From contig CAVRJB010000013.1 of NCBI GenBank assembly GCA_963721385.1, forward strand, positions 548,338 through 612,337: a DNA stretch of 64,000 nucleotides, in the 5' to 3' direction. The notes beneath the pieces were generated by a model. That model searched no databases. It was not told the DNA's origin and saw only the letters and a program-made list of their open reading frames with translations. The number at the start of each line of letters is the position of its first letter. Position 1 is the first letter of the stretch. The translations under genes and the position numbers were made by a program. Below, one piece after another: positions 6,875-62,184 of the stretch. This DNA comes from an uncultured Acidobacteriota bacterium (GTDB lineage: Bacteria; Acidobacteriota; Thermoanaerobaculia; UBA5066).

Positions 6875-8166
6875 GCCCGGGGCGACACGAGCGCGGCCCA
6901 CTCCCTGAAGAAGCGCGGCCACGACTTCGCAGCGGTCCCGGGGTCGTCGAGCGTCGAGCCGGCCGGGAGCCCGAGCGCGAGGACGGCCGCCGCCATCGCG
7001 ACCCGGTGGTCGCCGTGGGCGGCGAAAGACGCGGCGCGCGGGGCGCCGGACCGGCCGTCTATGACCAGCCGCACGTCGCTCCCCTCGATCGCCTCCGCGG
7101 CCGAAGCTCCCGCCCGGGAGAGGAGGTCGACCCCCGCCGCGAGCCGGTCGGACTCCTTCTCCCGAAGGCGCGCCGCTCCGGAGAGGACCGACGTCCCGCC
7201 CGCGAACGCCAGCATCGCCGCGAGCGGCAACGCGGCGTCCGGCGCGGAGTCGACGTTTGCCGAGAGGGGCGAGACCGACGCCGGACCCGGAAGGTGCCCC
7301 GCGTCGACGGTCAGCTCTTCCCCGCTGGCGCCCGCCGCCCACGTCAACCGGCCGCCGGCGGCCTCGGCCCAGCTCCGGAAGAGCGCATCCGGCTGGCCGG
7401 ACGTCGGCGCGAGGCCCTCGAGCACGACGCGGCCCGACGAGACGAGAGCACCGGCGATCGGAAAGCAGGCGGCCGAGTCGTCCCCGTCGACGGCGAAGTC
7501 GGCCGGACGGTAGCCGCCTCCCGGCCGCCCGCCGAACGCCTTGACGGTCCGCCGCGTCAGGCCGACGTAGGCCGCGCTCGCGCTCCTCCCTTTCACTTCG
7601 AGGCCGATCCCCCCCGGGACGAGCGGCGAGGCGAGAAGGAGCGCCGAGAGGAACTGCGACGAGACGTCGCCCCGGATCGGGACGCGGCCGCCGTGAAGGG
7701 TCGCCCCGTGGATCCGGACGGGGAGGCGGCCGGGGCGTCCCAGGTCGTCGATCCGGGCGCCGAGGCTCCGGAGGGCGTCGAACAGGGGCCCCATCGGGCG
7801 TTCCTGCATCCGGGCCGAGCCGGTCAGGACGAAGCGCCCCGGGAGCGCCGGAAGGAGCGCGGCGAGGAAGCGCGCCGGGGTTCCGGCCGGCCCGACGTCG
7901 AGCACGGCCTCCCCCGCGGGGTCGGGGGCCAGAGGCCCTGCGACCGTCCAGACGGTCTCGGCCGTCTCGACCCGCGCCCCGAGGCGGCCGAGGAGGAGCG
8001 CGAGCGTCCGCGTGTCGTCCGAGTCGAGGGGAAAGCGGAGGCGGCTCGTCCCCTTCGCGAGCGCGGCGCAGACGAGGGCCCGGTTCGTGACGCTCTTGCT
8101 CCCCGGGACCCGGAGGCGGCCCGCCAGCCGGCCCGACGGAAGGGGGAACGGCTCCGGCCCGTTCAC
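6871..8166 (-). CDS. aroA: 3-phosphoshikimate 1-carboxyvinyltransferase (EPSP synthase)
   Basis: ORF 6871..8283 contains LRVPGSKSVTNRALVCAALAKGTSRL...DSDDTR...GPAGTPARFL...ARMQERPMGPLFDALRSLGA...GDVSSQFLSALLLASPL...ESDRLAA...HGDHRVAMAAAVLAL. The start is placed at the GTG at 8166 (VNGPEPFPLP...), which forms a GTGA overlap with the upstream gene's stop. Confidence 0.85.
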   Translation of the reverse strand: MNGPEPFPLPSGRLAGRLRVPGSKSVTNRALVCAALAKGTSRLRFPLDSDDTRTLALLLGRLGARVETAETVWTVAGPLAPDPAGEAVLDVGPAGTPARFLAALLPALPGRFVLTGSARMQERPMGPLFDALRSLGARIDDLGRPGRLPVRIHGATLHGGRVPIRGDVSSQFLSALLLASPLVPGGIGLEVKGRSASAAYVGLTRRTVKAFGGRPGGGYRPADFAVDGDDSAACFPIAGALVSSGRVVLEGLAPTSGQPDALFRSWAEAAGGRLTWAAGASGEELTVDAGHLPGPASVSPLSANVDSAPDAALPLAAMLAFAGGTSVLSGAARLREKESDRLAAGVDLLSRAGASAAEAIEGSDVRLVIDGRSGAPRAASFAAHGDHRVAMAAAVLALGLPAGSTLDDPGTAAKSWPRFFREWAALVSPRA

Positions 8167-8957
8167 GGCGTCGTCGCCGCGTGCGCGGTCGGGCGTTTCA
8201 CCGCGCGCTCCGCGCCCGCCTCCTCCACGAGGACCAGCGTCCCATCCGGCCCGATCTCGGCGTGGCGGCGCTCTTCCAGCCACGCGGGCAGCACCTGCGC
8301 GACCGTCTCCCCGGACGAAACGACGCGGTCGACGTGGAAGTGCCCGACGAGGAGCCGCCCGTAGCCGGCGGCGCGGGCGCGCCGTGCCTCGGCGAGGAGG
8401 GCCGCCTCCGGCAGGTACGACTTGTGCCGGAAGTTCGTCTTGTAGAGGCGCGCCTCGGTCCCCGAGACGATCGCCCGCGCGACGGGCCCGGGAATCACCT
8501 TCATCGCCGCGCGGGAAACGGGGTTCTTCGAGAGCAACCGCCAGAAACGGTACGGCAGGTCTTTCGTGTTCACCCGGTCACCGTGTACGAAAGCGAACGC
8601 GGCCCCGCCCACTGAAAGGCCGTCCATTTCGCCATACGCCACGAATGACGAGACGAACGGTGTCCCGGAGAGAAAGAAGTCGCGGTTCCCTTCGACGTAC
8701 CTGAGCGCCACGCCGTCCGCCGCGAGAGCGCGCCAGCCGTCCAGGACCCGCCGGACGAGCGGCGTCTCGAATTTCGCATCGCCGATGAAGACGTGGAAGA
8801 TGTCGCCGAGGAGGACGATCGTCCGGAAGCCGCGTCGGGAGACGTCCGACAGGGCCGCGAGGAAGTCGTCCCCGTCCTGCGGCGCCTGCCCAAGGTGGGC
8901 GTCGGCGAAGACGGCGACTCCTCCCTCGACGGGGACCGGCGCCCGATACGTCGTCAC
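8163..8957 (-). CDS. lpxH: UDP-2,3-diacylglucosamine hydrolase-like metallophosphoesterase (LpxH family)
   Basis: ORF of 264 aa carrying the calcineurin-like motif series in LpxH order: VFADAHLG, LLGDIFHVFIGD, EGNRDFF, VHGDR, VGHFHV. Confidence 0.7.
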   Translation of the reverse strand: MTTYRAPVPVEGGVAVFADAHLGQAPQDGDDFLAALSDVSRRGFRTIVLLGDIFHVFIGDAKFETPLVRRVLDGWRALAADGVALRYVEGNRDFFLSGTPFVSSFVAYGEMDGLSVGGAAFAFVHGDRVNTKDLPYRFWRLLSKNPVSRAAMKVIPGPVARAIVSGTEARLYKTNFRHKSYLPEAALLAEARRARAAGYGRLLVGHFHVDRVVSSGETVAQVLPAWLEERRHAEIGPDGTLVLVEEAGAERAVKRPTAHAATTP

Positions 8958-9009: not shown

Positions 9010-9039
9010 AAAAAAAAGGCCCCGGGTCGCCCCGGGGCC
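9010..9039 (-). terminator. rho-independent terminator of the mtrCAB-like operon
   Basis: Located 23 nt downstream of the mtrB-like stop. The GC stem ggccccgg/ccggggcc (9018-9025 / 9032-9039) has a 6-nt loop. On the transcribed (minus) strand it is followed by an 8-U run (A-run 9010-9017 on plus). Confidence 0.65.
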
Positions 9040-9061: not shown

Positions 9062-11017
9062 TCAGTTCGGGTGCCAGCGCAGGTACGCGCCGATGGTGTT
9101 GGCCTTGTAGTCGCCGTAGAGGTTGATCGTCTCCTCGTACTTGTCGTAGGCCCACTCGCCGATGATCGAGAACTGCTTCGCGAACGGGATCTCGGCCCGG
9201 ACGCGCGCGCGGTCGATCGTGAAGGCCGCGTTGCCCTGGTTCTCGAACCGCATCGCCGAGCCGGTCAGCATGAAGACGTCGAACGTGAGGCCGAGGTTGA
9301 CCTCGTACGACATCCCCTTCTCGGCGTAAATCGACGCGACGGTCGTGAGGTTCTGCGGAATGACGATCGGGATCGAGGTGTTGTTGTTGATCTGGCCGGC
9401 CTGGAAACCAATCGTGAGGGGTTTCCAGGGCGTGATCGAGATGTTGCCGGAGTAGAAGCGGTACTTGGAGGAGAGGCCGAGGCCGACCCCGGAGTTGGAG
9501 TTGTCGACCCACTGGCCCGAGCCTCCGACCGTCAGGAAGTTCTTGAGCGTCCAGCTCCCGCGGAGCTTGAAGGTCTGCTGGTCCTGGAAGTCTGTCCGGA
9601 CGATGGCGTGGTTGGCGCCCGAAGTCGAGTAGTCGCCGAGGACCGTGAAGCCGGCCATCGCGAACGTCAGCCCCGCCTTGACCGTGTGGAAGTTCCGCTC
9701 GTAGATGCCGCCCTGCCCGCCGATCGGAAGGACGATCTCGGCCACGGACTCCGACAGGTTCAGGTCCTGCTTCGTGTACGAGTAGCCGCCGCGGATGGAG
9801 ACCGGGCCGACTTTCCGGATGTTGACCGACGCGTCCCAGGTCTCGTCGTCCCGGACCATGTGGTTGTAGACCGGTGTCGAGAGAAAGTTCGTCGGGAGAC
9901 CGCCCGTGTACGTGACGGCGTTGGCGAAGAGGGTGGAGATCAGCGCCGACCCGTTCTCGTCCCGGTGGCTCTGCCGCCATCCGGCGATGAAGTCGACGTT
10001 CTCCCCGAGCCCGTACTCGGCCCGCACCGCGCCGCGCCAGAAGGAGTTCCCGGCGCGGGGAGCCTGCGTCTCGCTGAGGCCGCTGAAGAACTGTCCGAGG
10101 GCGAAGCTGACCATGTTGCCCGCGGCGTTCTCGTTGTCGTTCGCGTCGAGATTGCCGCCCGTGTGGATGTAGGTGCCGGTGACGCGGCAGCGCGGGCAGA
10201 ACTGCGCCGTGACCGCCGCGTTCGTGATCGGCTGGTTGACCGTCGTATCGGTCGAGTTCGAGTAGCTCGTCAGCTTGAGCGTCTGGCCGAGCACGGAGGT
10301 CGGGTAGTCCCCGGCGCCCTTGCCCGGCATCAGGGTCTGGACGTCGTTCTCGACCGTCTTCCGCCAGCCCTGGGTGACATGACCCGAGATCCCGTAGGCG
10401 TTGAAGAGGAGGCCGACGCGCGGCTCCTGGTCGACGACGCGGAGGGTCTCGTTCAGCTGGTAGACGTTGCCGCCCACGAGGGCCGTCGTCGTGCCCGGGC
10501 CCGCGTAGTGGTTCTGGGTGTAGCCGAAGAGGGGCGAAACGATCTTGTCGGGCAGGAGGACGAGCTCGGCGTCGTAGATGTTGCGGTCGCGGTTCCACGT
10601 CTGCTGGCCGGGGATGATTCCCTGGTCGAGGAACGGGTTGGCGAAGGCGGGAAGCGCCGAGAACATCTCCTGGTGCGAGTAGCGGAGCCGGAGCTGGTAC
10701 CAGCCGGTCTTCCCGATCTCGAGCCGGCCGAACCCCTGGGGGCCGGCGCCGAGGTCGGAGACGTCGATGCGGAACTGGTCGAAGGCATTCGTCGCGCCGT
10801 CGAAGTTCGTCGTCGAGAGCGTGAAGGACCTGAGGTTGAAGCCCTGCTGCTCGTTGATCTGCGACCGGTACATGTCCTCGTTGCCCGAGACGGACACCCA
10901 CTTGTAGCCGACCTCGAGGTCGATGGGGATCGTCTCCGCGGCCGCCCCGAAGGCGGCGACGAGGAGGACGAGGGCCGCAGCGAGGGGGACGAGCCGGGTG
11001 AGTTTGTCTTTTCTCAT
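9062..11017 (-). CDS. mtrB: outer-membrane beta-barrel protein, MtrB/PioB family (decaheme-associated porin)
   Basis: ORF of 651 aa with a signal peptide (MRKDKLTRLVPLAAALVLLVAAFGAAAE). It shows alternating amphipathic beta-strand composition rich in Y/G/N/T/S/Q throughout and ends with an aromatic-rich strand (GAYLRWHPN). There is an internal CPRC motif at residues 274-277. It sits immediately (10 nt) downstream of the periplasmic decaheme gene, with RBS GGAGA. Size and position match MtrB. Confidence 0.75.
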   Translation of the reverse strand: MRKDKLTRLVPLAAALVLLVAAFGAAAETIPIDLEVGYKWVSVSGNEDMYRSQINEQQGFNLRSFTLSTTNFDGATNAFDQFRIDVSDLGAGPQGFGRLEIGKTGWYQLRLRYSHQEMFSALPAFANPFLDQGIIPGQQTWNRDRNIYDAELVLLPDKIVSPLFGYTQNHYAGPGTTTALVGGNVYQLNETLRVVDQEPRVGLLFNAYGISGHVTQGWRKTVENDVQTLMPGKGAGDYPTSVLGQTLKLTSYSNSTDTTVNQPITNAAVTAQFCPRCRVTGTYIHTGGNLDANDNENAAGNMVSFALGQFFSGLSETQAPRAGNSFWRGAVRAEYGLGENVDFIAGWRQSHRDENGSALISTLFANAVTYTGGLPTNFLSTPVYNHMVRDDETWDASVNIRKVGPVSIRGGYSYTKQDLNLSESVAEIVLPIGGQGGIYERNFHTVKAGLTFAMAGFTVLGDYSTSGANHAIVRTDFQDQQTFKLRGSWTLKNFLTVGGSGQWVDNSNSGVGLGLSSKYRFYSGNISITPWKPLTIGFQAGQINNNTSIPIVIPQNLTTVASIYAEKGMSYEVNLGLTFDVFMLTGSAMRFENQGNAAFTIDRARVRAEIPFAKQFSIIGEWAYDKYEETINLYGDYKANTIGAYLRWHPN

Positions 11018-11027
11018 CGGCCGTCTC

Positions 11028-11951
11028 CTACTTGAAGAGCTGCGGCGAGAAGTTGGAACCGTGGACGGCGGTGTGGCACGTCGTGCAGTTCCTCCACTTC
11101 GGCAGCGAGATGTTGTGAATGGACGGAGGCTGCGAGCCGGCCGTCGGCCACCCGAGGTTCGAGTGGCACTCGAGGCAGAGCGCGGCGACCGTGGAGCGGG
11201 TCAGCATGTGCATGTTCGGCGAGCCGTGCGGCCGGTGGCAGCTCATGCAGTTCCCCGCCACGTTGGTCACGTGCTCGTAGACGTGCGGCCCCTTCTTCTC
11301 GGCGTGGCACGAGACGCAGATCAGGTCTCCCGCGCGGGTCAGCTTGATCGTCTGGCCCTGGGGGCGCCCGTGGGCGTTGTGGCACGACGAGCAGTCGATG
11401 CCGCCGCGCCCGACGTGGTGCGTGTACGGCTCGCTCTTGAACGACGTGACCGGCCCCGCATGGCACCCGCCGCAAAGCTCCACCTGGGGCTTGACGAGCA
11501 GTTTCTGCGTGCGGAAGTCGGCGTGGTGAACGGAGTGACAGCTCAGGCAGTTGACCGCTTCCGAGGAGGCGTGGACGCCGGTCCGGTAGGACCAGCGCTC
11601 CCGCATCTTGTCGTGGCAGCCGAGGCAGGTCTCGGAGCCCTGCCAGCCCTTCAGGCCGCGGATCATCGCGACGTCGCCGCCGGCTTCCGCGTGGTTCTTG
11701 CCCGGGCCGTGGCAGCTCTCGCAGACCGCTTCGGCAGGGTCCTTCTTGGCCAGCCAGGTCCGGATGTGCGGGTTGTTCTGGAAGGCCTTGACCTGGTCCT
11801 CGTGGCAACTTGCGCAGAGGCTGTCCGTCGGCGCGGCACCCTTTTTCGCGTCCGGCGCCGCCGCCAGCGTCAGGCCCGGCGTGAGCCCGACGAGGAGGAG
11901 AAGCGCCAGCAGCAGGAGGATGCCGCCGGGAAGGAAGACTCTTGTTCGCAT
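11028..11951 (-). CDS. mtrA: periplasmic decaheme c-type cytochrome, MtrA/DmsE family
   Basis: ORF of 307 aa with a signal peptide and exactly ten CxxCH motifs: CASCH, CESCH, CLGCH, CLSCH, CGGCH, CSSCH, CVSCH, CMSCH, CLECH, CTTCH. This is about one heme per 30 aa, typical of MtrA. Confidence 0.85.
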   Translation of the reverse strand: MRTRVFLPGGILLLLALLLLVGLTPGLTLAAAPDAKKGAAPTDSLCASCHEDQVKAFQNNPHIRTWLAKKDPAEAVCESCHGPGKNHAEAGGDVAMIRGLKGWQGSETCLGCHDKMRERWSYRTGVHASSEAVNCLSCHSVHHADFRTQKLLVKPQVELCGGCHAGPVTSFKSEPYTHHVGRGGIDCSSCHNAHGRPQGQTIKLTRAGDLICVSCHAEKKGPHVYEHVTNVAGNCMSCHRPHGSPNMHMLTRSTVAALCLECHSNLGWPTAGSQPPSIHNISLPKWRNCTTCHTAVHGSNFSPQLFK

Positions 11952-11964
11952 CTAAGCCTCATGG

Positions 11965-11996
11965 CCTCGGGCGGCGCCGGCTGGCGCCGCCCGAGG
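11965..11996 (-). other. intercistronic stem-loop between the mtrC-like and mtrA-like genes
   Basis: Perfect 14-bp inverted repeat cctcgggcggcgcc / ggcgccgcccgagg (11965-11978 / 11983-11996) with a 4-nt loop. It fills most of the 54-nt gap. There is no U-run after it on the minus strand. Confidence 0.5.
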
Positions 11997-12005
11997 ACTG
12001 TCAGT

Positions 12006-14079
12006 TCAGTAGGCGTGGACCTTGGCGACGCTCCAGTCTGCGTTCCCACCGTGGCAGGTGCCGCACGCCTCGCCGAAGGGTGCTGTGTTGAGGTACGCGT
12101 GGGCGGCGGCGTCGCGGCTGTCGTGGCAGCCGAGGCAGGCGGCCGTTCCGGAACCCTGAGGCGTGAAGTAGTCGCGCTGCGTCACCACGTTCAGCGTGCC
12201 CGCCGGCATCGGAAGGTCGTAGGCGGCGGCGTTCGTGTGGCAGGCGAGGCAGTTCCGGCGGTCGCCGGGATAGGTCACCTCGTTGAAGCTGCCCGGCTGC
12301 CCGCTGTTGCCGTAGATCGTGTAGTCCTGGGTCAGCTCTTCGCCCGTGTGGATCCGGTGGATCATCCGGGCCATCTCGATCGACTCGCCGGGGTCGGCCG
12401 AATGGTCGGTCGGACGGCGGGTAATGTCGCTGTTGACGGGGTTGTGGCACATGACGCAGTACTGGATCGAGATTCGCTGCCCGCCGTGCGAGAAGGTCGT
12501 CGCGAGGCGGCTGTGGCAGGCGTTGCACTTGGCGAGGTCGACGGCCACGCGGCGGTGCGTCACGGCGGTTCCCGCCTTGACGGCGAAATCGTAGATCGGG
12601 TTCTCCTTGGGGCCTTCGGTGAAGGATCTCGTCCCGCCCGAGGCCTGGGTGAGGGTGACGGTCCGCCGGGTCGCTGCGCTCATCGTCCACGTCCCGGTGG
12701 CGTCCGCCGGAATCGCGGTCGTGAAGTTCCAAGTGCAGATTCCCGTCGCCGGGTCATAGATCGCGGTCGTCGCGGTCTGGCTGATGGGCACCATGCCGTA
12801 ATCCGAGGTGTTTCCCGCGAGGACGAGGGTCGCCGAGGCCCCGCCGGTCGCCGAGGAGGGCTTGACGGGCGTCCCGTCGTTCTCGGTGATCTTGAAGGTG
12901 ACGGTCGGCTTCTGGCCGGGGGCGGTGTTCGTCACCGAAAGGATCGCGAAGTTGAGGCCCTTGAGCTGCTTCGATTCGGCGGGCAGGACGTGCGCCCCCT
13001 TGATCGAGGCATCCCACTCGGAGCCGCTATCAGGCGTGTGGCAGGTGGCGCAGTCGTTGTCGTTGGCCTGCGGGAGATTCGCGTCGCTGTGGCCCGCTCC
13101 GGTCGCGAAGTTGACGCTGGTGTGGCAGCCGCCGCAGGCAGCCCGCGAGGGCTGCGACATCCAGGTCGTCCCCATCGGCGCCGCCTTGTCGTGACAGGTG
13201 TCGCAATCCTGGACGAGCTGCGGGTAGGTGATCTCCGCGGCCCCCTCCCACTGCTCGGAGTGGATGAGGTGCCAGAAGTGCTGTCCGTCGTAGGTGGAAC
13301 GCTCCTCGGCCGGCTCGCCTCCGGAGCCGGGAATCTGTCCCACCATGTTGTTCGGGTTGTGGCAGAGGGCGCAGGTCTTCGTCTCGCGGTAGTTCCCGCC
13401 GTGCGGACTGACCGCCGAGCCGAGATCCGGCGTGTGGCACTGGTTGCAGCGCGTCGTCGTGGTGTTGCCCCAGGTCGTCGCCGCGGTCTGGAGGTCCGGC
13501 GGCATCCCGTCCTTGAAGGCCTGGACGTAGTAGTTCTTTCCGATGATCGCGGAGGTGTTCCGGACGAAACCGCCGAAGAGGGTCGTCGGCTTCGTCCCGT
13601 CGAACTTCGTCGGCAGCGCGTTGAAGAAGGTGTACTTGTAGTGGCCGATGTCGAGCGTCTGCGTGGTGCCGGTGTTGTCGCGCGTCGGGTTGCCGCCGAT
13701 GCCGATCTGGTTCGTGTAGTACTTGCCGTCCCAGATGGCGACGATGAACCGGTAGGTGACCGTCCCCGCCGTCGCGGCGCCCGTCCGGTCGAGCGGGTTG
13801 CCGAAGTCGTCGGTGATCGTGAACTCGACGACCGGCTTCTGGCCCGGCAGCGAGGTTCGCCACGCTGTTGATCGTGACCTTGAGGCCCGGCCGGATGTAG
13901 TCCAGCTGGTCCGGCGTCAGATACGCCTCGCGCTGGTCGGCGCTGTAGGCCACCGGCGCCTCGGGAGCGAGTCGCTTCACCGGAGAACCGACGTCGCCGG
14001 AGTCGACCGGGACTTGCGACGGAAGGGCCAGGGCCCCGGCCGCCATGAGGACGAGAAGGCCGCGCTGCACCGCTACCAT
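12006..14079 (-). CDS. mtrC: extracellular-type decaheme c-type cytochrome, OmcA/MtrC family; reading frame interrupted once
   Basis: Frame 1 runs from the ATG at 14079 (RBS GGAGGAG): MVAVQRGLLVLMAAGALALPSQ...GLKVTINSVANLAAG. It then switches at ggcccggc (13841-13848, one extra nucleotide) to the frame of ORF 12006..13505: QKPVVEFTITDDFGNPL...MPPDLQ.... The reconstructed protein is about 690 aa with the MtrC domain order: beta domain, then 5 CxxCH (CNQCH, CALCH, CDTCH, CGGCH, CATCH), then a second beta domain (NFAILSVTNTAPGQKPTVTFKITENDGTPV, a near repeat of the first, INSVANLAAGQKPVVEFTITDDFGNPL), then 5 CxxCH (CNACH, CVMCH, CLACH, CLGCH, CGTCH). No lipobox cysteine follows the signal peptide. 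Confidence 0.8.
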
Positions 14080-14117
14080 GAGAACTCCTCCTTCCGGCTG
14101 CCGCCGGACCGGACGTT

Positions 14118-14133
14118 GGAAAGCATGCTTTCC
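14118..14133. promoter_or_regulatory. perfect 16-bp palindrome GGAAAGCATGCTTTCC in the mtrC-like 5' region (candidate operator or 5'-UTR hairpin)
   Basis: Read directly from the sequence. It lies 39-54 nt upstream of the mtrC-like ATG, downstream of the only AT-rich patch (14215-14240) in the 223-nt intergenic region. Confidence 0.3.
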
Positions 14134-14302
14134 TGTTTGTTGCCGTTTTGAATGACCGCGCGCCGGGAGAGGCGGGCGGCGATTCCAAGCGACCGCGAGT
14201 CACACGGAGCACCCGGAATCTGAATAAAGAATGTAGGGGACGCCTGATGCATTGGCCGGCAGACTAGGTTTTCCCCCCCGAACCCGACATGATTCAGATG
14301 CG

Positions 14303-44858: not shown

Positions 44859-45177
44859 AAAGGGGTTTCACCGCCTTTAGGGATTCTTTCGGCCTCCTTC
44901 CGGACTTCTTGGGGAGGTCGGCCGCAAGTTCCCGGCGTGAACACGGAGACCCAAGTCCCACCCACCGAACCTACTTCAGGCCTTCCTCCTCGTCGCTCTG
45001 GCGATCGCGTCGCTCGTCGGCGGCGCCGCGGTGGCGCTCTACGTCGACGGATTCGCATGTCTGGCCGTCGTCCTCGCCGGCTTCGGAGGCTATCTCGCGC
45101 TCTTCGCGGCCGCGCTTCGCCGGTTCGGCGGGGACTGGGATCGCTGGCGCGAGCCAGACTCGGAATGGCGCTCCGGC

Positions 45178-46356
45178 ATGCGGCGCCCGTCGGGCGGAAA
45201 GCGCGGAAGCGGCGCCCTGCGCCTGGCCGCCACGACGATCCTCTCGGCGGCCGTGGCCCTCCCACTCGTCGGCGAGGAGGCCCCGACTCCCAGGCCGACG
45301 CCGGCGCCCGTAGCCGCCGAGTCCGCGGCTCCTGCCGAAAAGCCCTGGTACCAGGAGATCACCGTCAACGGCTTCCTCTCGGTCTGGTACGAGTACAACA
45401 CCAACCGCCCGGCCTCGGGCCGCAACCAGTACCGCGTCTTCGACTATCTGGACAACAGCGTGAGCGTCGACGCGGCCGAGATCGTCGTCCAGAAAGCCGT
45501 CGAGAAGCCCGGCGACGTCGGCTTCCGAGTCGACGCCGTCGCCGGCAACGTGGCGAGGGTCTCGTCGGCCGCCGGCCTCTTCCAGGGCCAGGACTTCGAC
45601 CTCCAGCAGGCCACCGTCAGCTGGATCGCCCCCGTCGGCAGCGGCCTGCGCCTCGACTTCGGCAAGTTCATCACCCACATGGGCAACGAGGTGATCGAGG
45701 GGTACGACGGCTGGAACGACAACGCCACCCGCTCCTTCGTCTTCGGCTACGCCATCCCCTTCACCCACACCGGCCTGAAGGCCACCACGTCGTTCGGGGA
45801 CCAGCTCACGGCCATGCTGGTCCTCTGCAACGGCTGGGACGTCGTGCAGGACAACAACAGCGGCAAGTCCATTGGCGCCCAGCTCATCTGGACCCCCTCG
45901 AAGGCCGTCACGGTCACGGGGAACTACATGGGCGGCCCCGAGCAGCCCAACTCGACCGCGAACTGGCGCAACGTCGGCAACGTCGTGGCCCAGTGGAAGG
46001 CCACCGACCGGACGGTCTTCACCCTCGAGCTGACCTACGGGGGCGAGCCGAACGTCGTGACCAGCGGAGAGACGGCCACCTGGAGCGGGATCGTCGGCTA
46101 CGCGCGGTTCGGCCTCACCGACTGCTTCGCCCTCAGTCTACGCGGCGAGTACTTCGCCGACCCCGACGGCGCACGGACCGGCGTCCCCCAGTACCTCAAG
46201 GAGGTCACCCTGACCCCCGAATGGAAGATCTCCCGCCACTTCCTCGTCCGCGGCGACTTCCGCCTCGACTGGTCCAGCCGCGACGTCTTCGAGAAGAAGT
46301 CCGCCTTCACCGACACCCAGCCCACGATCCTCGCCAACGTGATCTACGTCTTCTGA
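45178..46356 (+). CDS. outer-membrane beta-barrel porin (OmpL-like / bbp2-type) encoded at the head of the kdp operon
   Basis: The internal ATG of ORF 45031..46356 gives the signal peptide MRRPSGGKRGSGALRLAATTILSAAVALPLVGEEA. The body is an alternating beta-strand pattern rich in Y/G/N/D/T (ITVNGFLSVWYEYNTN...RVDAVAG...LRLDFGKFITHMGNEVIEGY...) and ends with ILANVIYVF (C-terminal Phe). Confidence 0.65.
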   Translation: MRRPSGGKRGSGALRLAATTILSAAVALPLVGEEAPTPRPTPAPVAAESAAPAEKPWYQEITVNGFLSVWYEYNTNRPASGRNQYRVFDYLDNSVSVDAAEIVVQKAVEKPGDVGFRVDAVAGNVARVSSAAGLFQGQDFDLQQATVSWIAPVGSGLRLDFGKFITHMGNEVIEGYDGWNDNATRSFVFGYAIPFTHTGLKATTSFGDQLTAMLVLCNGWDVVQDNNSGKSIGAQLIWTPSKAVTVTGNYMGGPEQPNSTANWRNVGNVVAQWKATDRTVFTLELTYGGEPNVVTSGETATWSGIVGYARFGLTDCFALSLRGEYFADPDGARTGVPQYLKEVTLTPEWKISRHFLVRGDFRLDWSSRDVFEKKSAFTDTQPTILANVIYVF

Positions 46357-46367
46357 AAAGGAATCCG

Positions 46368-46451
46368 ATGCTCGACGTGATCTTCCTCCTCGCCACCGCC
46401 GCCCTCCTCGCCGCCTCGCTCTGGTACGCGAAGCGCTGCGACGAGCTGTGA
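46368..46451 (+). CDS. candidate 27-aa hydrophobic micropeptide upstream of kdpF
   Basis: My own translation gives MLDVIFLLATAALLAASLWYAKRCDEL-stop. An aaagga sequence lies 6 nt upstream. It has one predicted TM helix and I know of no homology. It is too short for the ORF track. Confidence 0.25.
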   Translation: MLDVIFLLATAALLAASLWYAKRCDEL

Positions 46452-46459
46452 GGGCCGTC

Positions 46460-46549
46460 ATGACTTTCGAAAGCGCTCTCGGCCTCGTCCTCGCCGTGGC
46501 CGCCCTCGCCTATCTCCTCTACGCCCTCGTGAAACCGGAAAAGCTCTGA
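46460..46549 (+). CDS. kdpF: K+-transporting ATPase subunit F
   Basis: My own translation gives MTFESALGLVLAVAALAYLLYALVKPEKL-stop (29 aa). This matches the KdpF pattern (single TM helix ending LxYLxxALxxPEKF/L). It ends 7 nt before the kdpA ATG. Confidence 0.6.
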   Translation: MTFESALGLVLAVAALAYLLYALVKPEKL

Positions 46550-46556
46550 GGCCCCG

Positions 46557-48265
46557 ATGAACGACGTCTTCCTGAAGACCGGCCTTTACTTTCTCCTGAT
46601 CCTCGCCGTCACGAAGCCGCTCGGTATCTACATGAAGCGAGTTTTCGCCGGCGAGCGGACGTTCCTCGACCCCGTCATAGGCCCGGTCGAGAAGCTCCTC
46701 TACCGCCTCGGCGGCGTCGGTTCCCTCAAGGACCAGACCTGGCTCCAGTACGGCGGGGCGATGCTGATCTTCAACGTCGTCGGCCTCGTCGTCGTCTACG
46801 CGATGCAGCGGCTGCAGCACCTCCTTCCCTTCAACCCCGACAAGCTCCCCGCCGTGCCGCCCGCCCTCGCCTGGAACACCGCCGTCTCGTTCACGACGAA
46901 CACGAACTGGCAGGCCTACTCCGGCGAGTCGACGATGTCCCACCTGACGCAGATGGCGGGCCTGACGATCCACAACTTCGTCTCGGCCGCAACGGGCATC
47001 GCGCTCGCCGTCGCCATCGTCCGCGGGATCGCGCGGACCGAGTCGAAGGGGATCGGCAACTTCTGGCAGGACCTCGTCCGGTCGACGCTCTGGGTCCTGC
47101 TTCCCATCAGCCTCGTCTCCGCGATCGTCCTGACGTCCCAGGGCGTGATCCAGAACTTCCAGCCGACCCGCGAGGTCACGACGCTCGAAGGGGCCGTCCA
47201 GAAGATCCCGGGCGGGCCCGTCGCCTCGCAGGAGTCGATCAAGGAGCTCGGGACGAACGGCGGCGGCTTCTTCAACGCGAACTCCGCCCACCCCTACGAG
47301 AACCCGACGCCGGCGACGAACCTCCTCGAGATGTTCCTGATCTTCGCGATCCCGGCCGGGCTGACGTACACGCTCGGCTCGATGACCGGGAAGCCGCGAC
47401 ACGGCTGGGCCGTCTTCTGGGCCATGGCGATCCTCTTCCTCGGCGCGGCCTTCGTCGCCGGATGGGCCGAGGTGCGGGGCAATCCGATTCACCACGCCCT
47501 CGGCGTCGCCGGCGGCGCCCGGGAACATGGAGGGGAAGGAGGTCCGGTTCGGGCCGGGCGACTCCGCCCTCTTCGCGACGATCACGACCGACGCCTCGTG
47601 CGGCGCCGTGAACTCGATGCACGACTCCTTCACGCCCCTCGGCGGCCTGGTCCCGCTCGTGAACATCCAGCTCGGCGAGATCGTCTTCGGCGGGGTCGGC
47701 GCCGGGCTCTACGGGATGTTCCTCTTCGTCGTCCTCTCGGTCTTCATCGCCGGCCTCATGGTCGGCCGGACGCCCGGAGTACCTCGGCAAGCGGATCGAG
47801 GCGCACGACGTCAAGCTCGCGATGCTCGCGGTCCTGATCCTGACGTTCTCGATCCTCGTCGGGACCGCGGCGGGCGTCGCGACGAAGGCCGGCCTCGCGA
47901 GCCTGAACAACGCCGGCCCCCACGGCCTGTCTGAGATCCTCTACGCCTACACGAGCGCGACCGGGAACAACGGCAGCGCGTTCGCCGGCCTGAACGCGAA
48001 CACCGACTTCTACAACGTGACGCTGGCCGTCGCGATGTTCTTCGGCCGCTTCTGGATGATCATCCCGCTCCTCGGCATCGCCGGCTCGCTCGCCGCCAAG
48101 AAGAAGGTCGCCGAGTCGGCGGGCACGTTCCCGGTCGACGGCCCGGTCTTCGTCTTCCTCCTCGTCAGCGTCATCCTGATCGTCGGCGCCCTCACGTTCT
48201 TCCCCGCCCTCTCGCTCGGACCGATCGTCGAGCACCTCCTGATGGGCGCCGGGAAGCTCTTCTGA
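46557..48265 (+). CDS. kdpA: K+-transporting ATPase subunit A; reading frame interrupted twice
   Basis: Three track ORFs read as one KdpA. ORF 46557.. gives [33 protein letters not shown]...[35 protein letters not shown]...[23 protein letters not shown]... up to ...[11 protein letters not shown] 47527.. gives [10 protein letters not shown]...[24 protein letters not shown]...[11 protein letters not shown] 47822.. gives [20 protein letters not shown]...[26 protein letters not shown]...GPIVEHLL. The junctions are at gcccggg (47517-47523) and ccc (47773-47775), each with one extra nucleotide. Confidence 0.85.
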
Positions 48266-48274
48266 TCGAAAGCC

Positions 48275-50324
48275 ATGAAAAAAGCAGAGAAGCTCTCCCT
48301 CTTCGACCGCGCGATCCTTTCCCGCGCCGCCGTCGACTCCTTCGCGAAGCTCCACCCGCGGAAGATGATCGGAAACCCGGTCATGTTCATCGTCGAGGTG
48401 GGCGCCGTCGCGACCACGCTCTTCCTCCTCCCCGGCCTCGCGCCGAAGGGGCTCTTCGGCTTCCAGCTCCAGATCGTCTTCTGGCTCTGGGCGACGGTCC
48501 TCTTCGCGAACTTCGCCGAGGCGGTCGCCGAGGGGCGCGGCAAGGCCCAGGCCGACGCGCTCCGGCGCGCGAAGACCGACGCCGTCGCCCGGCGGCTCCT
48601 CGGGAACGGCGCCTCGGCCCAGGAGGAGCGGATTCCAGCCTCGAGCCTCCGCAAGGGCGACCTCGTCGTCGTCGAGGCGAACGAGCTGATCCCGGGCGAC
48701 GGGACGGTCGTCGAGGGGATCGCCTCGGTCAACGAGTCGGCGATCACCGGCGAGTCGGCTCCCGTCATCCGCGAGGCCGGCGGCGACCGTTCCGCCGTGA
48801 CCGGCGGGACGACGGTCCTCTCCGACCGGATCGTCGTCGAGATCACCTCCGAACCGGGCCAGACGTTCCTCGACCGGATGATCCGGCTCGTCGAAGGGGC
48901 CGAGCGCCAGAAGACGCCGAACGAGATCGCCCTCGACATCCTCCTCGCCGGCCTGACGATCGTCTTCCTCTTCGCGACCGTGACGCTCCGCCCGTTCGCG
49001 GTCTACTCCGGGGGAAACGTCTCGGTCACGGTCCTGATCGCCCTCCTCGTCTGCCTCATCCCGACGACGATCGGCGGCCTCCTGTCGGCGATCGGCATCG
49101 CCGGGATGGACCGGGTCCTGACGCACAACATCCTGGCGATGTCGGGACGCGCCGTCGAGGCCGCCGGCGACGTGAACGTCCTCCTCCTCGACAAGACCGG
49201 GACGATCACGCTCGGCAATCGGGAAGCCACGATGTTCCTCGCGGCCCCGCGCGTCGAGGAACACGAGCTGGCCGGGATCGCGCAGCTCTCCTCCCTCGCC
49301 GACGAGACCCCCGAGGGGCGCTCGATCGTCGTCCTCGCGAAGGAGAAGTACGGCCTGCGGGGCCGCGCACCTTCGGGAGCTGAACGCCACCTTCGTCCCG
49401 TTCACGGCGAAGACCCGGATGTCGGGTCTCGACTTCGCGGACGGCCGGAAGGTGCGAAAGGGAGCCGCCGACGCCGTCGACGCATTCGTCCGCTCCCTCG
49501 GCGGCTCGCTCCCCGAGGAGGTCCGGCGGGACGTCGCGACGATCGCGGCGGAAGGAGGCACCCCGCTCGTCGTGGCCGACGGGCCGCGCGTCGTCGGGAC
49601 GATCTACCTGAAGGACATCGTGAAGGGCGGGATGAAGGAGCGCTTCGACCGCCTCCGCGCCATGGGGATCCGGACGGTCATGATCACGGGCGACAACCCC
49701 CTCACTGCGGCGACGATCGCCCGCGAGGCGGGCGTCGACGACTTCCTCGCCCAGGCGACGCCAGAGGACAAGCTCGCGCTGATCCGGTCGGAGCAGGCGA
49801 AGGGGAACCTCGTGGCGATGACCGGCGACGGCACGAACGACGCCCCCGCCCTCGCGCAGGCCGACGTCGGCATGGCGATGAACACCGGCACGCAGGCCGC
49901 CAAGGAAGCCGGCAACATGGTCGACCTCGACTCGAATCCGACGAAGCTGATCGAGGTCGTCGAGATTGGCAAGCAGCTCCTGATGACGCGCGGCGCGCTG
50001 ACGACGTTCTCTATCGCGAACGACGTCGCGAAGTACTTCGCGATCATTCCCGCGATGTTCCTCGCCACCTACCCCGCTCTCCAGGCCCTGAACGTCATGC
50101 ACCTCGCGACGCCCGAGAGCGCGATCCTCTCGGCCGTCATCTTCAACGCCCTGATCATCGTCGCGCTCATTCCTCTCGCGCTCCGCGGCGTCAAGTACCG
50201 CCCGCTCGGCGCGGGACGGATCCTGCGCCGGAACCTCGTCCTCTACGGCCTGGGCGGCGTCCTCGTCCCGTTCGCCGGCATCAAGCTGATCGATCTGATT
50301 CTCGTCGCCCTCCACCTCGTCTGA
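48275..50324 (+). CDS. kdpB: K+-transporting P-type ATPase subunit B; reading frame interrupted once
   Basis: ORF 48275.. gives [41 protein letters not shown]...[14 protein letters not shown]...[17 protein letters not shown] (DKTGT phosphorylation site)...[11 protein letters not shown]. After a shift at about 49365-49372 (one extra nucleotide), the ORF 49419.. frame gives [22 protein letters not shown]...[14 protein letters not shown]...[25 protein letters not shown]... Confidence 0.9.
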
Positions 50325-50332
50325 GAGCCGCC

Positions 50333-50987
50333 ATGAAAGAACACCTGCTCCCCTCGATCCGCCTCTACCTCGTCCTCACGCTCCTCCTCGGGTTCGGCGT
50401 ATCCGGCCGTCGTCTGGGCCGTCGGCCGGATCGCCTTCCGGGACGCCTCTGGCGGGAGCCTCCTGAAGAAGACAGACGACCCCGGCGCTCTCGTCGGCTC
50501 GTCGCTCATCGGACAGTCGTTCGTGATGCCGGGACACTTCCACGGCCGCCCCTCCGCGGCGGGGAGCGGCTACGACGCCACGGCGTCGAGCGGCACGAAT
50601 CTCGGTCCGACTTCCCAGAAGCTCGCCGACGCCGTCAAGGACGCCGTGAAGTCCGTGAGAGACGACGAGGGAGTCACCGGGTCCGTCCCGGCCGACGCCG
50701 TCACGTCCTCCGGCTCGGGCCTGGATCCCCACATCTCGCCGGAGTACGCACGCCTGCAGGTTGCTCGCGTCTCCCGGGAGACCCGGATTCCCGCCGCCGA
50801 CCTCGAGGCGCTCGTCACGAGGAACACCGAGGGGCGGTTCCTCGGCGTCTACGGCGAGAGCCGCGTCAACGTCCTTGCCCTGAACCTCGAGATCGACGCG
50901 CGGCTCGGCCATCCCCAGATCGCGCCCACGCCCACTCCGACGCCGGCGCCTGCCCCGTCCGTGAGCCCGGCGGCCCCCGCCGGATAA
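50333..50987 (+). CDS. kdpC: K+-transporting ATPase subunit C; reading frame interrupted once
   Basis: The ATG at 50333 gives [20 protein letters not shown]. After a shift at ggg (about 50390-50392, one extra nucleotide), the frame of ORF 50523..50987 gives [15 protein letters not shown]...[20 protein letters not shown]...[12 protein letters not shown]...[24 protein letters not shown]...[11 protein letters not shown]. The C-terminus is an unusual Pro/Thr/Ala-rich tail. Confidence 0.8.
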
Positions 50988-50994
50988 TGGGCGG

Positions 50995-52143
50995 GTGAAG
51001 CCGGAAGAACCCAAGCGCCCGGACCCCGAAGCCTTCCTCCGTCTCCTCGCGCGCGAAGAGAAGCGCGGCCGGCTGAAGGTCTACCTCGGACAGGCGGCCG
51101 GGGTCGGCAAGACCTACCGGATGCTCGACGACGCGCAAGCGATGCGCACGCGCGGGATCGACGTCGTCGTCGGCCTCGTCGAGACGCACGGGCGGAAGGA
51201 GACGGCGGACCGGATCGGCGACCTCGAGGTCGTCCCCCGCCGCCGGGTCGAGTACAAGGGGACCGTCCTCGAGGAGATGGACCTCGAGGCCCTCCTCGCA
51301 CGGAAGCCCGAGGTCGCGGTCGTGGACGAGCTCCCCCACACGAACGCGCCCGGCGGCAAGAACGAGAAGCGGTGGCAGGACGTGGAAGACCTCCTCGCGG
51401 CGGGGATCTCCGTCCTGACCACGCTCAACGTCCAGCACCTCGAGGGGGTGCAGGACGTCGTCAAGTCCGCGATTCACCTCGAGATCCGCGAGCGGGTCCC
51501 GGACCGCGTTGTTCGCGAGGCGGACGCTGTCGTGAACGTCGACCTCCCGGTCTCGGAGCTCCGCGAGCGGCTCAAGCAGGGGAAGATCTACCCCCCCGCC
51601 CAGGCCGCCTCGGCGCTCGAGAATTTCTTCCGCGAGGACAACCTCCGCTCTCTTCGCGAGCTCGCGCTCCGCGAGACCGCGGAAGGAGTCGGCCGGGAAC
51701 GAACCGAGACGTCGGGGACCTTCGCGGTCCCGTCGGGCATTCAGGTCGCCGTGGCCCTGCCGCTCGACACGGCCCGGGCCCGCGCCCTGATCCGCCGCGG
51801 CTCGAAGCTGGCCGGCCGGATGAACACGCGCTGGTACGCGCTCTATGTCCGGCGGAAGAGGGACCACCCCGAGAACCTCTCCGCCGCCCAGCACCGCGAG
51901 CTCGTCGAGAACATCAACCTCGCCATGTCGCTCGGCGCCAACGTCGTCTATCGCGAGTCCGAGGACGTCGCCGGGGCGATCCTCGAGTTCGCGAAGTCGG
52001 AAGGGGTGAAAGTCCTCGTGATGGGCCGGCCGGGTCGGACGGGCCTCAAAGGACGGCTTTCACCGGGCATCGTCCAGCGGGTGCTCGAGGGGGCCGAAAG
52101 CATCGACGTCGTGGTCGCCGACATCGCTGCCGACGCCCCGTGA
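50995..52143 (+). CDS. kdpD: stand-alone KdpD N-terminal sensor domain plus universal-stress-protein (USP) domain, with no kinase core
   Basis: ORF of 382 aa (GTG start): [25 protein letters not shown] (Walker-A-like)...[15 protein letters not shown]...[10 protein letters not shown]...[26 protein letters not shown]...[17 protein letters not shown]...[13 protein letters not shown]...[21 protein letters not shown]-like domain follows (VAVALPLD...WYALYVRR...[11 protein letters not shown]). There is no TM domain and no HisKA or HATPase domain. Confidence 0.8.
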
Positions 52144-59005: not shown

Positions 59006-60304
59006 CTACATGTGCGCGATGACGGCGTCGCCGAACTCGCTGCACTTCACTTCCTTCGCCCCTTCCATCTGGCGGGCGAAGTCGTAGGTGACGATTCGGT
59101 CCTGGATCGCCCCGTCCATCCCCTTGAGGATGAGGTCCGCGGCCTCGGTCCACCCCATGTAGCGGAGCATCATCTCGCCCGAGAGGACGACCGAGCCCGG
59201 GTTGACCTTGTCGAGGTCCGCGTACTTCGGCGCCGTGCCGTGCGTCGCCTCGAAGATGGCGTGGCCGGTGACGTAGTTGACGTTGCCGCCCGGCGCGATC
59301 CCGATCCCGCCGACCTGCGCGGCGAGGGCGTCGGAAAGATAGTCGCCGTTCAGGTTCAGCGTCGCGATGACGTCGAACTCGTCCGGCCGCGTCAGGACCT
59401 GCTGGAGCGTGATGTCGGCGATGGCGTCCTTGATCAGGACCTTCCCCGAAGCCAGCTGCTGCTTCTGCTCGGCGTTGGCCGCCGCCTCGCCCTTTTCCGC
59501 CTTCGTCCGCTCCCACTGCTCCCAGGTGTAGGTCTGGGTCGGAAACTCCTTCTCGGCGAGGGCGTAGCCGCAGTTGCGGAACGCGCCCTCGGTGTACTTC
59601 ATGATGTTCCCCTTGTGGACGAGCGTGACGCTCTTCTTCCGGCTGCGGATCGCGTACTCGATCGCCGCGCGGACCAGGCGCTCGCTGCCGTCCTTCGAGA
59701 CCGGCTTGATGCCGAGGCCGGTCGAGTCGGGGAAGCGGATCTTCTTGTACTGCGGCGGGAAGTTCTCCTTCAGGAAGGCCAGGACCTTCTTCGCTTCGGC
59801 GCTGCCGGCGTCGAACTCGATGCCGGCGTAGATGTCCTCCGTGTTCTCGCGGAAGATGACCATGTCGATCTTCTCGGGGTGCTTGACCGGCGACGGGACG
59901 CCCTTGAACCAGCGGACCGGGCGGAGGCAGACGTAGAGGTCGAGGATCTGCCGGAGCGCGACGTTCAGCGAGCGGATGCCGCCGCCGATCGGGGTCGTGA
60001 GCGGCCCCTTGATGCCGACGAGGTAGTCGCGGAAGGCGTCGGTCGTCTCGTCGGGGAGCCAGGTCTGGGCGTTGTCGAACGACTTCTGGCCGGCCAGGAC
60101 CTCCATCCAGTGGATCTTCTTCTTTCCGCCGTAGGCCTTCGCGACCGCGGCGTCGAGGACGCGGACGCTGGCCCGCCAGATGTCGCGGCCGGTGCCGTCT
60201 CCCTCGATGAAGGGGATGATCGGGTTGTCGGGGACCTTGAGCTGTCCGCCGGAGATCGTGATCTTCGCTCCGCCGGCGGGGACTTTCGGCTTGGCGTCGG
60301 GCAT
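59006..60304 (-). CDS. icd: NADP-dependent isocitrate dehydrogenase (homodimeric, E. coli-type)
   Basis: The ATG at 60304 has RBS GAGGAGG. Sequence: [43 protein letters not shown]...[38 protein letters not shown] (contains the Ser of the GGIRSLN motif that AceK phosphorylates in E. coli)...[26 protein letters not shown]...[11 protein letters not shown]. Confidence 0.9.
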
Positions 60305-60368
60305 TTCGGAGCCTCCTCGGGCGCGGATCTTAGGGGCCCACCCTGTCCCCCACAACAGAGCGTTTGTA

Positions 60369-62100
60369 TCAGGCGGTCGCCGGGTCCGGATGGGGCAGCC
60401 GGCGGGCCTCCGGGTAGGGAAAGACGTCGAAGATCTCCCCCGCCCGCTCGCCGCCGCTGCATCTCCCTCCAGAAGCCGGGGAGAAGGAGGTCGGCGTGTC
60501 GCTCGAGGAACGCCGTCCGGCCGTCGCCGCGGAGCCCCATGAAGGTCAGGAACTCCTCCGGAAAGACGTCGTTCTCCCCGACGTAGAACCCCGGTTCGCC
60601 TCCGTCCCCGCCGTCCTCGTCGCCCGACGGGAGCTCGCGGAATCGGCAGTCGGTGACGAAGCAGAGCTCGTCGTAGTCGTAGAAGACGACGCGCCCGTGC
60701 CGGGTCACCCCGAAGTTCTTGAGGAGGAGGTCGCCCGGGAAGATGTTGGACCTTGCGAGGTCCCGGATCGCCTCGCCGAAGTCGAGGATCGCCCGCCGCG
60801 CCGCTTCGGGCGGCGCGTCCTTGAGATACAGGTTCAGAGGCGTCAGCCGGCGCTCGGTGAAGAGGTGGTGGACGACGACTTCGTTCCCGACGACCTCGAC
60901 CGTGCCGGCCGCGCCCGAAAGGAGCTTCTCGAGGAGTTCCGGGTTGAAGCGCGAGACCGGGAAGGAAAGGTGCTCGAACTCCTGAACGTCGACGAGACGC
61001 CCCGCCCGGCCGTGGCGGAAGACGAGACGGTACTTGTCGAGGACGTCCTGCCGCCCCGTCGTCTTCGGGTGGGCGAAAACGTCCCGGATGACCTTGAAGA
61101 CGACGTCGTACGACGGGAGGGTGAAGACGAGCATCACCATCCCCGCCTCCCCCGGCGCCAGGACGAACGGGTCGTCCGACGCCGCGAGATGCCGGAGGAG
61201 GTCGCGGTAGAGCTCGGTCTTCCCGTGCTTGTTGAAGCCGATCGCGGTGTAGAGCTCCCCGATCGGCTTCTTCGGCATGATCGTCTTGAGGAACGCCACG
61301 AGCGCCGCCGCGTTCGCGACGTCGACGTGGAAGTAGGAGCGCGTGAAGCTGAAGACGATCGAGGCTTCGTCCTCGTCCGCGAGGACGGCGTCCACGACGA
61401 CTTTCCCGCGGGGGTTCACGAGCGCGAGGAGGAAGGGCATCGTCCTCTCGCCGCGGCGGAGCCGGCCGACGAGATACGCCCCCTTGTTCCGGAAGAAGAC
61501 GGGGCGCAGCACCTGCGCCGTGTCGAATCCCGGCCCGCCCCAGAGCTCGGTGAGGTAGGCGTCCAGCTTCTCGGCCGCGAGGCTGGCGTCGCGCGACGCG
61601 TCCTCCCACCCGGCCGGGAACGGGTGCGCCGCGAGGATCCGGAAGAGGGCAGCGGCCGTTCCCTGCGCGCCGGAGTAGGTCTCCGCGAGGATCCGGGCGG
61701 CGCGAAGCGAGAGGGACGGGACCTCCGAGGCGACGAACTCCGTCCGCGGGTCGACGCCCACCGTGTGGAAGATCCGCCGCGACGCGGAGTTGAAGAACGT
61801 CTCGGCGAGCTCGATGTCCGGACGCCCGGCGACGAGAGAGGCGTACGCCTCCTTCATCTCCGACCAGACGGACTTGTCGCAGAGCCCCGCCTTGAGTATC
61901 GCCTCGAGGTCGGCGAGCGCCGGGTCGAGCACCTTCCGATAGAGCTCCAGCCGTTCGAGGGCGTCGGCGCGCATCCCGTGCCAGTCCCGGGAGACGAAGC
62001 GGTCCGGCGCGCGCCGCGTGATCTCCGCGAATGCGCGCCCATAGACCTCGTGCGCCTCGAGAATCCGTCTCGGCGCCGCGGAGGGCGGCGCCGGTGTCAC
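60369..62100 (-). CDS. aceK: isocitrate dehydrogenase kinase/phosphatase; C-terminal frame interrupted once
   Basis: The GTG at 62100 gives [56 protein letters not shown]...[13 protein letters not shown]...SYFHVDV...[19 protein letters not shown]...[20 protein letters not shown]...[27 protein letters not shown]...FWREMQ. After the C5 run at 60437-60441 (one extra nucleotide) the conserved ending [15 protein letters not shown]...stop (TGA 60371-60369) is recovered. Confidence 0.85.
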
Positions 62101-62184
62101 GTCCGGGTCTTCACGCGCCCGTATCGTACCGGGGGGAGACACGCGACTGGGTCGCGCACCGGCCGCGTGCGGCAGAATCGGCCC

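Follow-up and report, generated by a model that had tools for sequence, protein, structure and literature searches.

Organisation of the locus

The 64,000-nt stretch of contig CAVRJB010000013.1 analysed here (hereafter the window) carries on its minus strand a compact cluster of three genes that encode two decaheme cytochromes and a beta-barrel protein, in the mtrC-mtrA-mtrB order of the outer-membrane electron conduit of Shewanella. The genes were delimited from the open reading frame (ORF) listing and a six-frame translation, and the cluster comprises the following features.

9062-11017, minus strand: barrel (mtrB-like) gene, 651 amino acids (ORF listing and six-frame translation)
11028-11951, minus strand: mtrA-like gene, 307 amino acids (ORF listing and six-frame translation)
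12006-14079, minus strand: mtrC-like gene, split over two frames (ORF listing and six-frame translation)
13841-13848, minus strand: single-base insertion (frameshift) in mtrC, in the run GCCGGGCC
9010-9039, minus strand: intrinsic terminator 3' of the barrel gene, a hairpin followed by T8
14085-14095, minus strand: Shine-Dalgarno sequence GGAAGGAGGAG, 5 nt upstream of the mtrC ATG (read from the sequence)

All three genes are co-directional, with gaps of 54 nt between mtrC and mtrA (11952-12005) and 10 nt between mtrA and the barrel gene (11018-11027), and a single terminator stands behind the barrel gene, confirming the tightly spaced operon with a strong terminator described in the original prediction, which had been made from the sequence alone. 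The terminator hairpin (GGCCCCGGGG-CGAC-CCCGGGGCC, 9039-9018) has a 9-bp stem composed entirely of GC pairs and a 4-nt loop, lies 23 nt past the stop codon of the barrel gene and runs into T8. The start codon of mtrC is an ATG at 14079. GC content at third codon positions (GC3) was 0.92-0.93 in the three gene frames, which singles these out as the coding frames; by the same codon-position analysis, the long overlapping ORFs found here on either strand are artefacts of a GC content of ~68%. Between mtrC and the upstream methyltransferase gene is a gap of 223 nt (14080-14302) containing a small hairpin at 14118-14133, and no sigma-70-like promoter match was found within it.

The two decaheme cytochromes

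The product of the mtrA-like gene is a predicted periplasmic decaheme cytochrome of the DmsE/MtrA family. Its 307 residues include a signal peptide, 24 histidines and the ten CxxCH motifs originally counted, and it scored 205 bits against TIGR03508 (DmsE/MtrA; cut-off 192.2) over residues 44-301. It matched the solved MtrA structure (6R2Q_A) at E = 4.4e-29 and is 30% identical to MtrA of Photobacterium. The MtrC-like protein also has 24 histidines, so that each cytochrome holds enough of them for bis-His ligation of ten hemes. MtrA-like proteins additionally gave sub-threshold scores on the GSU2203 decaheme family model.

With one base taken out of the run GCCGGGCCAG (13841-13848), the mtrC-like gene encodes 690 amino acids with exactly ten CxxCH motifs, five at residues 211-347 and five at residues 518-676, bearing out on the repaired frame the decaheme protein of roughly 690 residues that had been proposed. 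Secondary structure prediction placed beta domains at residues 67-192 and 375-499, giving the domain order beta I, pentaheme II, beta III, pentaheme IV and backing the layout initially suggested. The two halves of the protein align at 28% identity over ~300 residues (E = 6e-16), an internal duplication; the openings of the two beta domains, once described as near-identical, share 15 of 27 positions by count, so that they are clearly related and the description was overstated. Family assignment is well supported across the length of the protein, which scored 321.7 bits against TIGR03507 (OmcA/MtrC; cut-off 209.3) with residues 79-688 covering profile positions 5-672 of 672, matched PF22113 twice, and retrieved the solved structures of MtrF (3PMQ, 2e-20) and MtrC (6R2Q_C) with phmmer. 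A Foldseek search with a low-confidence AlphaFold2 model of the protein returned OmcA, UndA and MtrF as its top five matches (E = 5e-14 to 2e-11), well separated from the matches below them. The MtrC proteins of relatives already carry the OmcA/MtrC family label in NCBI and JGI annotations.

The N-terminus of the MtrC-like protein, MVAVQRGLLVLMAAGALALPSQ, contains no cysteine, and its signal peptide is of the Sec type. The absence of a lipobox, pointed out for this protein in the original prediction, proved to hold for all 16 aligned MtrC sequences (that of the window and 15 relatives), and also for the MtrC of a more distant locus, L002; the Photobacterium control MtrC has the lipobox LLAAC. 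A lipoprotein signal is typical of the OmcA/MtrC family, as in Shewanella and the Vibrionaceae, but does not define it.

Sequence divergence is spread unevenly over the protein and the cluster. On a related contig whose barrel is 91% identical to that of the window (P0124, P0001), MtrC is merely 64-66% identical to its counterpart, and among close relatives MtrC varies most in beta domain III (residues 363-505), at 48-57% identity compared with 76-81% for domain I. A pattern of this kind would suit rapid evolution, or exchange of alleles, in the part of the protein presumed to be exposed at the surface.

The frameshift in mtrC

In the assembly, mtrC has a one-base insertion at 13841-13845, where frame 0 reads ...NSVANLAAG and the +1 frame continues as QKPVVEFTITDDFGNPL... 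Taken at face value, the cluster would be decaying, with a real frameshift leaving a heme-less N-terminal product of 79 residues with out-of-frame sequence behind it, and at most an MtrAB-only conduit. The shift is present in the window as given, and the exact barrel sequence has no other record, hence no second copy of the genome with which to compare it. A decaying gene accords poorly with the rest of the reading frame, however, which past the shift has no further lesions, keeps its ten CxxCH motifs, a GC3 of 0.92 and its full-length match to TIGR03507. The repaired junction (...NLAAG joined to QKPVVEFTITDDFGNPL...) agrees residue for residue with relatives, such as P0122 (NVAAGQKPVVEFTITDDFGNPL), and each of the 15 aligned relatives has an unbroken mtrC, at lengths of 645-713 amino acids (672 in the syntenic relative). 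Programmed frameshifting was rejected, since the gene is a single uninterrupted ORF in the relatives.

Similar indels occur in no fewer than three further conserved genes of the window.

46557-48265: kdpA frameshift, with Pfam KdpA positions 3-309 in one frame and 393-548 in another
48275-50324: kdpB frameshift, with the switch near 49350-49375, the E1-E2 ATPase domain and DKTGT before it and the rest of the HAD domain after it
About 60440: aceK frameshift, with the frame change just ahead of the conserved C-terminal end

A heuristic based on changes of the GC3 frame was by itself too crude for counting frameshifts, and its candidates were then checked with Pfam. The shifts in mtrC, kdpB and aceK all fall within short G/C runs, and related loci from long-read metagenome-assembled genomes (MAGs) carry many indels of like kind. 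Together, the kdpA, kdpB and aceK shifts suggest an indel-prone, probably long-read, assembly. Because the relatives are intact and these genes of the same window are also shifted, we read the shift in mtrC as probably an assembly or sequencing indel in a gene that is whole in the organism, and consider genuine decay of the cluster quite unlikely.

The barrel protein

The third gene encodes a 651-residue protein with a signal peptide, no CxxCH motif and only two cysteines, which form the motif CPRC at residues 274-277. When the three proteins were searched with TIGR03507, TIGR03508 and TIGR03509, as had been proposed for checking the assignment, the MtrC and MtrA components exceeded their cut-offs, but the barrel was left without a match. 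Even with the threshold set at E <= 10, Pfam and NCBIfam searches of the barrel returned noise alone (Svf1 and a phage family), and BLASTP found no match between it and MtrB of Photobacterium. The MtrB/PioB models themselves work, because this same Photobacterium MtrB, used as positive control, scored 551 bits on TIGR03509. Ten distant full-length members of the barrel family likewise gave no match to PF11854.

Structure and profile comparison told more. The AlphaFold2 model (predicted local distance difference test, pLDDT, 82.3; predicted template modelling score, pTM, 0.74) shows a barrel with no plug domain and 26 long strands, in line with the roughly 26 that had been expected. Searched against the PDB with Foldseek, the model found MtrB (6R2Q_B) as its top match, at E = 3e-15 and a template modelling (TM) score of 0.64 in both directions; the runners-up were 22-strand TonB-dependent transporters, with TM scores of ~0.4. 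An hhalign comparison of the barrel family (alignment A1) with MtrB/PioB (alignment A3, 21 diverse PF11854 proteins) reached 98.5% probability (E = 2.9e-15), with an alignment of 549 collinear columns that takes in nearly the full length. In reversed-profile controls the probability fell to 22% and 2%, so the signal does not reflect mere beta-barrel periodicity. At an identity to MtrB of ~11-12%, the barrel is, on these profile alignments and its predicted 26-strand fold, a remote MtrB homologue that probably acts as MtrB does but lies outside the curated family models. The core of the original prediction, an MtrC-MtrA-MtrB-type conduit in a GC-rich bacterium outside the Gammaproteobacteria, thus holds, with the barrel assigned through fold and profile-profile homology.

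A barrel that no MtrB/PioB hidden Markov model (HMM) recognises, and some of whose homologues bear the precomputed label PF13609 (Porin_4), could also be a general diffusion porin whose gene is co-transcribed by chance with those of two purely periplasmic cytochromes. We regard this as very improbable, given the 26 strands, MtrB as best structural match and profile-profile homology over nearly the full length of MtrB/PioB, and given that the barrel always lies beside mtrA (10 nt away in the window) down to 25% identity.

Judging by strand parity in the model, the CPRC motif would sit at the hairpin turn between strands 10 and 11, probably on the periplasmic side. It is confined to relatives at least 63% identical to the barrel of the window, and most members of the family have no cysteine or a single one. 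The internal CPRC singled out in the original prediction is therefore real in this protein but is not a feature of the family, and its candidacy as counterpart of the Shewanella CXXC was rejected for want of conservation.

Distribution and ancestry

A word-indexed search recovered 191 homologues of the barrel, of which the organism-labelled ones come from Thermoanaerobaculia MAGs and the named ones are almost all called 'hypothetical protein'. An exhaustive profile search extended the family to 1,169 clusters at 50% identity (E <= 1e-3). One of the ten distant members is labelled Acidobacteria, and all members with a named source are Acidobacteriota, mostly Thermoanaerobaculia, the class to which the organism of the window probably belongs.

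The order mtrC-mtrA-barrel was kept in five of five related contigs, whose barrels range in identity to that of the window from 91% to 25%; these include L001 (46%), a heavily frameshifted locus. The spacing of the genes, too, recurs in relatives across this range. Two of the contigs, whose barrels are 91% and 42% identical to that of the window, have its whole neighbourhood in common with it, comprising on one side genes for an ABC-F ATPase, a GT2 glycosyltransferase, an epimerase, a DegT aminotransferase, a mannosyltransferase and a methyltransferase, and on the other a phosphoesterase-like gene and aroA. Preservation of this neighbourhood down to 42% barrel identity indicates vertical inheritance, and on this ground, and with the GC content of the cluster (0.67-0.68) inside the range of the window (0.67-0.77), a recent horizontally transferred island was rejected.

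Two relatives differ in what follows the barrel gene. In L002 (6001-9117, on a contig of 59% GC), a distant family barrel of 716 amino acids, 25% identical to that of the window and weakly matching the GSU2204 family (E = 2e-4), stands behind mtrC-mtrA and is followed by monoheme and tetraheme cytochromes. In L004 (12000-19312, on a 4.1-Mb contig), mtrC-mtrA-barrel is followed by two monoheme proteins of 95 amino acids, a 755-residue protein in which 12 hemes are fused to a cytochrome b domain (a CbcL-like architecture), a five-heme NrfH/NapC-like protein of 480 amino acids, and a Rieske/cytochrome b pair with a nine-heme cytochrome. These downstream cytochromes of L004, none of which occurs in the window, are plausible candidates for the inner-membrane electron source of the lineage.

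Surroundings of the cluster

No further ORF in the window has a CxxCH motif, and the window therefore holds no CymA, second mtrC/omcA or other c-type cytochrome, upholding the earlier statement that omcA/mtrDEF paralogues and a cymA-like gene are missing from it. The flanking genes had for the most part been named correctly as well; the exception is lpxH, since the ORF so called (8163-8957) had no Pfam match at E <= 1e-5 and its counterparts in relatives carry no more than a faint or weak Metallophos_2 mark. Across the 64 kb, Rfam and tRNA searches returned nothing and so supplied no taxonomic marker. Farther away, a gene for a BBP2/OmpL-like beta-barrel porin lies directly upstream of the kdpABC-kdpD potassium-uptake operon (44971-52143), and on the minus strand aceK, for isocitrate dehydrogenase kinase/phosphatase, lies directly upstream of the isocitrate dehydrogenase gene (59006-62277).

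Direction of electron flow

We consider it likely that the three genes form a chromosomal and vertically inherited operon of mtrC-mtrA-mtrB type in an Acidobacteriota bacterium and serve as an outward electron conduit across the outer membrane. In such a conduit, electrons from the quinol pool would pass to MtrA by way of an inner-membrane quinol oxidase whose gene lies elsewhere in the genome; the MtrA-like decaheme, threaded through the 26-strand barrel, would form a heme wire across the outer membrane; and the MtrC-like decaheme would dock on the outer face and pass electrons to insoluble Fe(III)/Mn(IV) oxides or other extracellular acceptors. We infer that the three proteins assemble into one complex. 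With no lipobox on MtrC and no gene for type II secretion identified, the exposure of this protein at the cell surface, which would have to be achieved without a lipid anchor, is likewise something that we infer.

Outward flow is supported indirectly by the presence of MtrC in every relative examined and by iron reduction in Thermoanaerobaculum aquaticum, the one cultured member of the class, which reduces Fe(III) and Mn(IV) (PMC9671151, PMC8787282); a MAG assigned to this species encodes one MtrC and two MtrA (PMC9671151, PMC8787282). The same conduit could instead run inward, with Fe(II), minerals or partner cells as electron donors, in the manner of MtoAB and PioAB. MtrA-family conduits are reversible in principle, TIGR03508 is blind to the split between MtrA and MtoA, PioA or DmsE, and no CymA-type reductive partner lies nearby; the Rieske/cytochrome b complex downstream in L004 is compatible with either direction. 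The strict linkage of an MtrC-type decaheme to the cluster in every relative examined speaks against inward flow, as surveys apply the label 'mto-like' to clusters without an extracellular cytochrome (PMC6137239), and so does the Fe(III)- and Mn(IV)-reducing metabolism of the cultured class member (PMC9671151, PMC8787282). We hold inward flow to be unlikely.

Several observations weigh against an outward MtrCAB-type conduit and temper our confidence in it. Neither TIGR03509 nor PF11854 matched the barrel even at E <= 10, and a 28-sequence barrel profile run against PDB sequences missed MtrB, its sole match being a spurious one to MHC. The AlphaFold2 model of the MtrC-like protein has an overall pLDDT of 53 with poorly predicted heme domains, as is to be expected of a prediction that included no hemes and drew on 16 sequences. 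As assembled, mtrC is shifted out of frame after residue 79. The MtrC-like protein lacks a lipobox, and a non-exhaustive search identified no gene for type II secretion. An inner-membrane quinol oxidase was not found within the 64-kb window, and the direction of electron flow is not readable from sequence. On balance, this acidobacterium probably respires iron or manganese minerals through the conduit.

Comparison with known systems

The cluster closely resembles Shewanella MtrCAB (6R2Q; TIGR03507, TIGR03508, TIGR03509), with which it shares the C-A-B order, a decaheme MtrC of beta/pentaheme/beta/pentaheme layout, a decaheme MtrA of ~300 amino acids and a 26-strand barrel of ~650 amino acids. 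Unlike its Shewanella counterpart, the barrel of the window is unseen by TIGR03509 and PF11854 at its ~11-12% identity to MtrB, the MtrC has no lipobox, and neither an omcA/mtrDEF paralogue nor cymA lies nearby. The barrel family also lacks the N-terminal CXXC of MtrB from gammaproteobacterial metal reducers, which in the Photobacterium control appears as CSDC at residue 39.

MtoAB and PioAB similarly pair an MtrA-family decaheme with an MtrB/PioB-type barrel. Their barrels match PF11854, whereas that of the window does not, and the operon of the window begins with mtrC, a partner that MtoAB and PioAB are not known to have. The porin-cytochrome complexes of Geobacter (OmbB-OmaB-OmcB, ExtABCD) follow the same logic of a porin, a periplasmic cytochrome and a surface cytochrome, and the CbcL-like and NrfH/NapC-like inner-membrane cytochromes beside the L004 cluster recall Geobacter inner-membrane modules; in contrast to the Geobacter complexes, the cytochromes of the window are of the MtrA and MtrC families rather than Oma/Omc, and the barrel is homologous to MtrB.

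Among acidobacterial systems, Baker et al. (2022) used PSI-BLAST to report mtrCAB in 148 species, including five Acidobacteriia that constitute Group 5, in which a tetraheme cytochrome lies downstream and no quinol oxidase lies nearby (PMC8805035). The term 'Thermoanaerobaculia' is absent from the main text of that paper. Like Group 5 (Acidobacteriia/Bryobacterales, PMC8805035), the cluster of the window is acidobacterial, has a single mtrC and lacks an adjacent inner-membrane quinone oxidoreductase; it differs in lineage (named relatives are Thermoanaerobaculia, and the GC content is ~68-70%) and in having no downstream tetraheme cytochrome. L002 does resemble Group 5 in having a tetraheme gene downstream of the barrel, but with a monoheme gene in between. 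Because of this downstream tetraheme cytochrome in L002, the barrel family of the window may include the 'MtrB' of Group 5.

Implications for acidobacterial electron transfer

Mtr homologues in Acidobacteria have been published (PMC8805035, PMC8787282, PMC9671151) and the MtrC proteins of relatives were already labelled as such, so the novelty that the original prediction had attached to the module was overrated. The most useful new points are an unannotated, HMM-invisible family of MtrB-like barrels and the absence of both lipobox and CXXC across the lineage. We advance tentatively, as a possibility falling a little short of probable, that this is a large, divergent and so far Acidobacteriota-only MtrB family missed by HMM surveys, and that it belongs to an ancestral Thermoanaerobaculia conduit of variant design. 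Were this true, a complete and vertically inherited conduit in Thermoanaerobaculia would replace the 'MtrC/MtrA only' picture reported so far, and its variant design would comprise an unanchored surface MtrC, a CXXC-less barrel and Geobacter-like CbcL- and NrfH-like partners instead of CymA.

As the standard MtrB/PioB models miss the barrel, acidobacterial conduits would be undercounted in surveys that ask for all three Mtr components, an annotation gap that a profile built from the barrel-family alignment A1 would mend. Only if the system proves functional would it follow that Mtr conduits do not in general need the lipobox and the CXXC, two features regarded as important in Shewanella. For the Thermoanaerobaculia, a class widespread in soils, sediments and hot springs, the cluster offers a concrete genetic candidate for mineral respiration.

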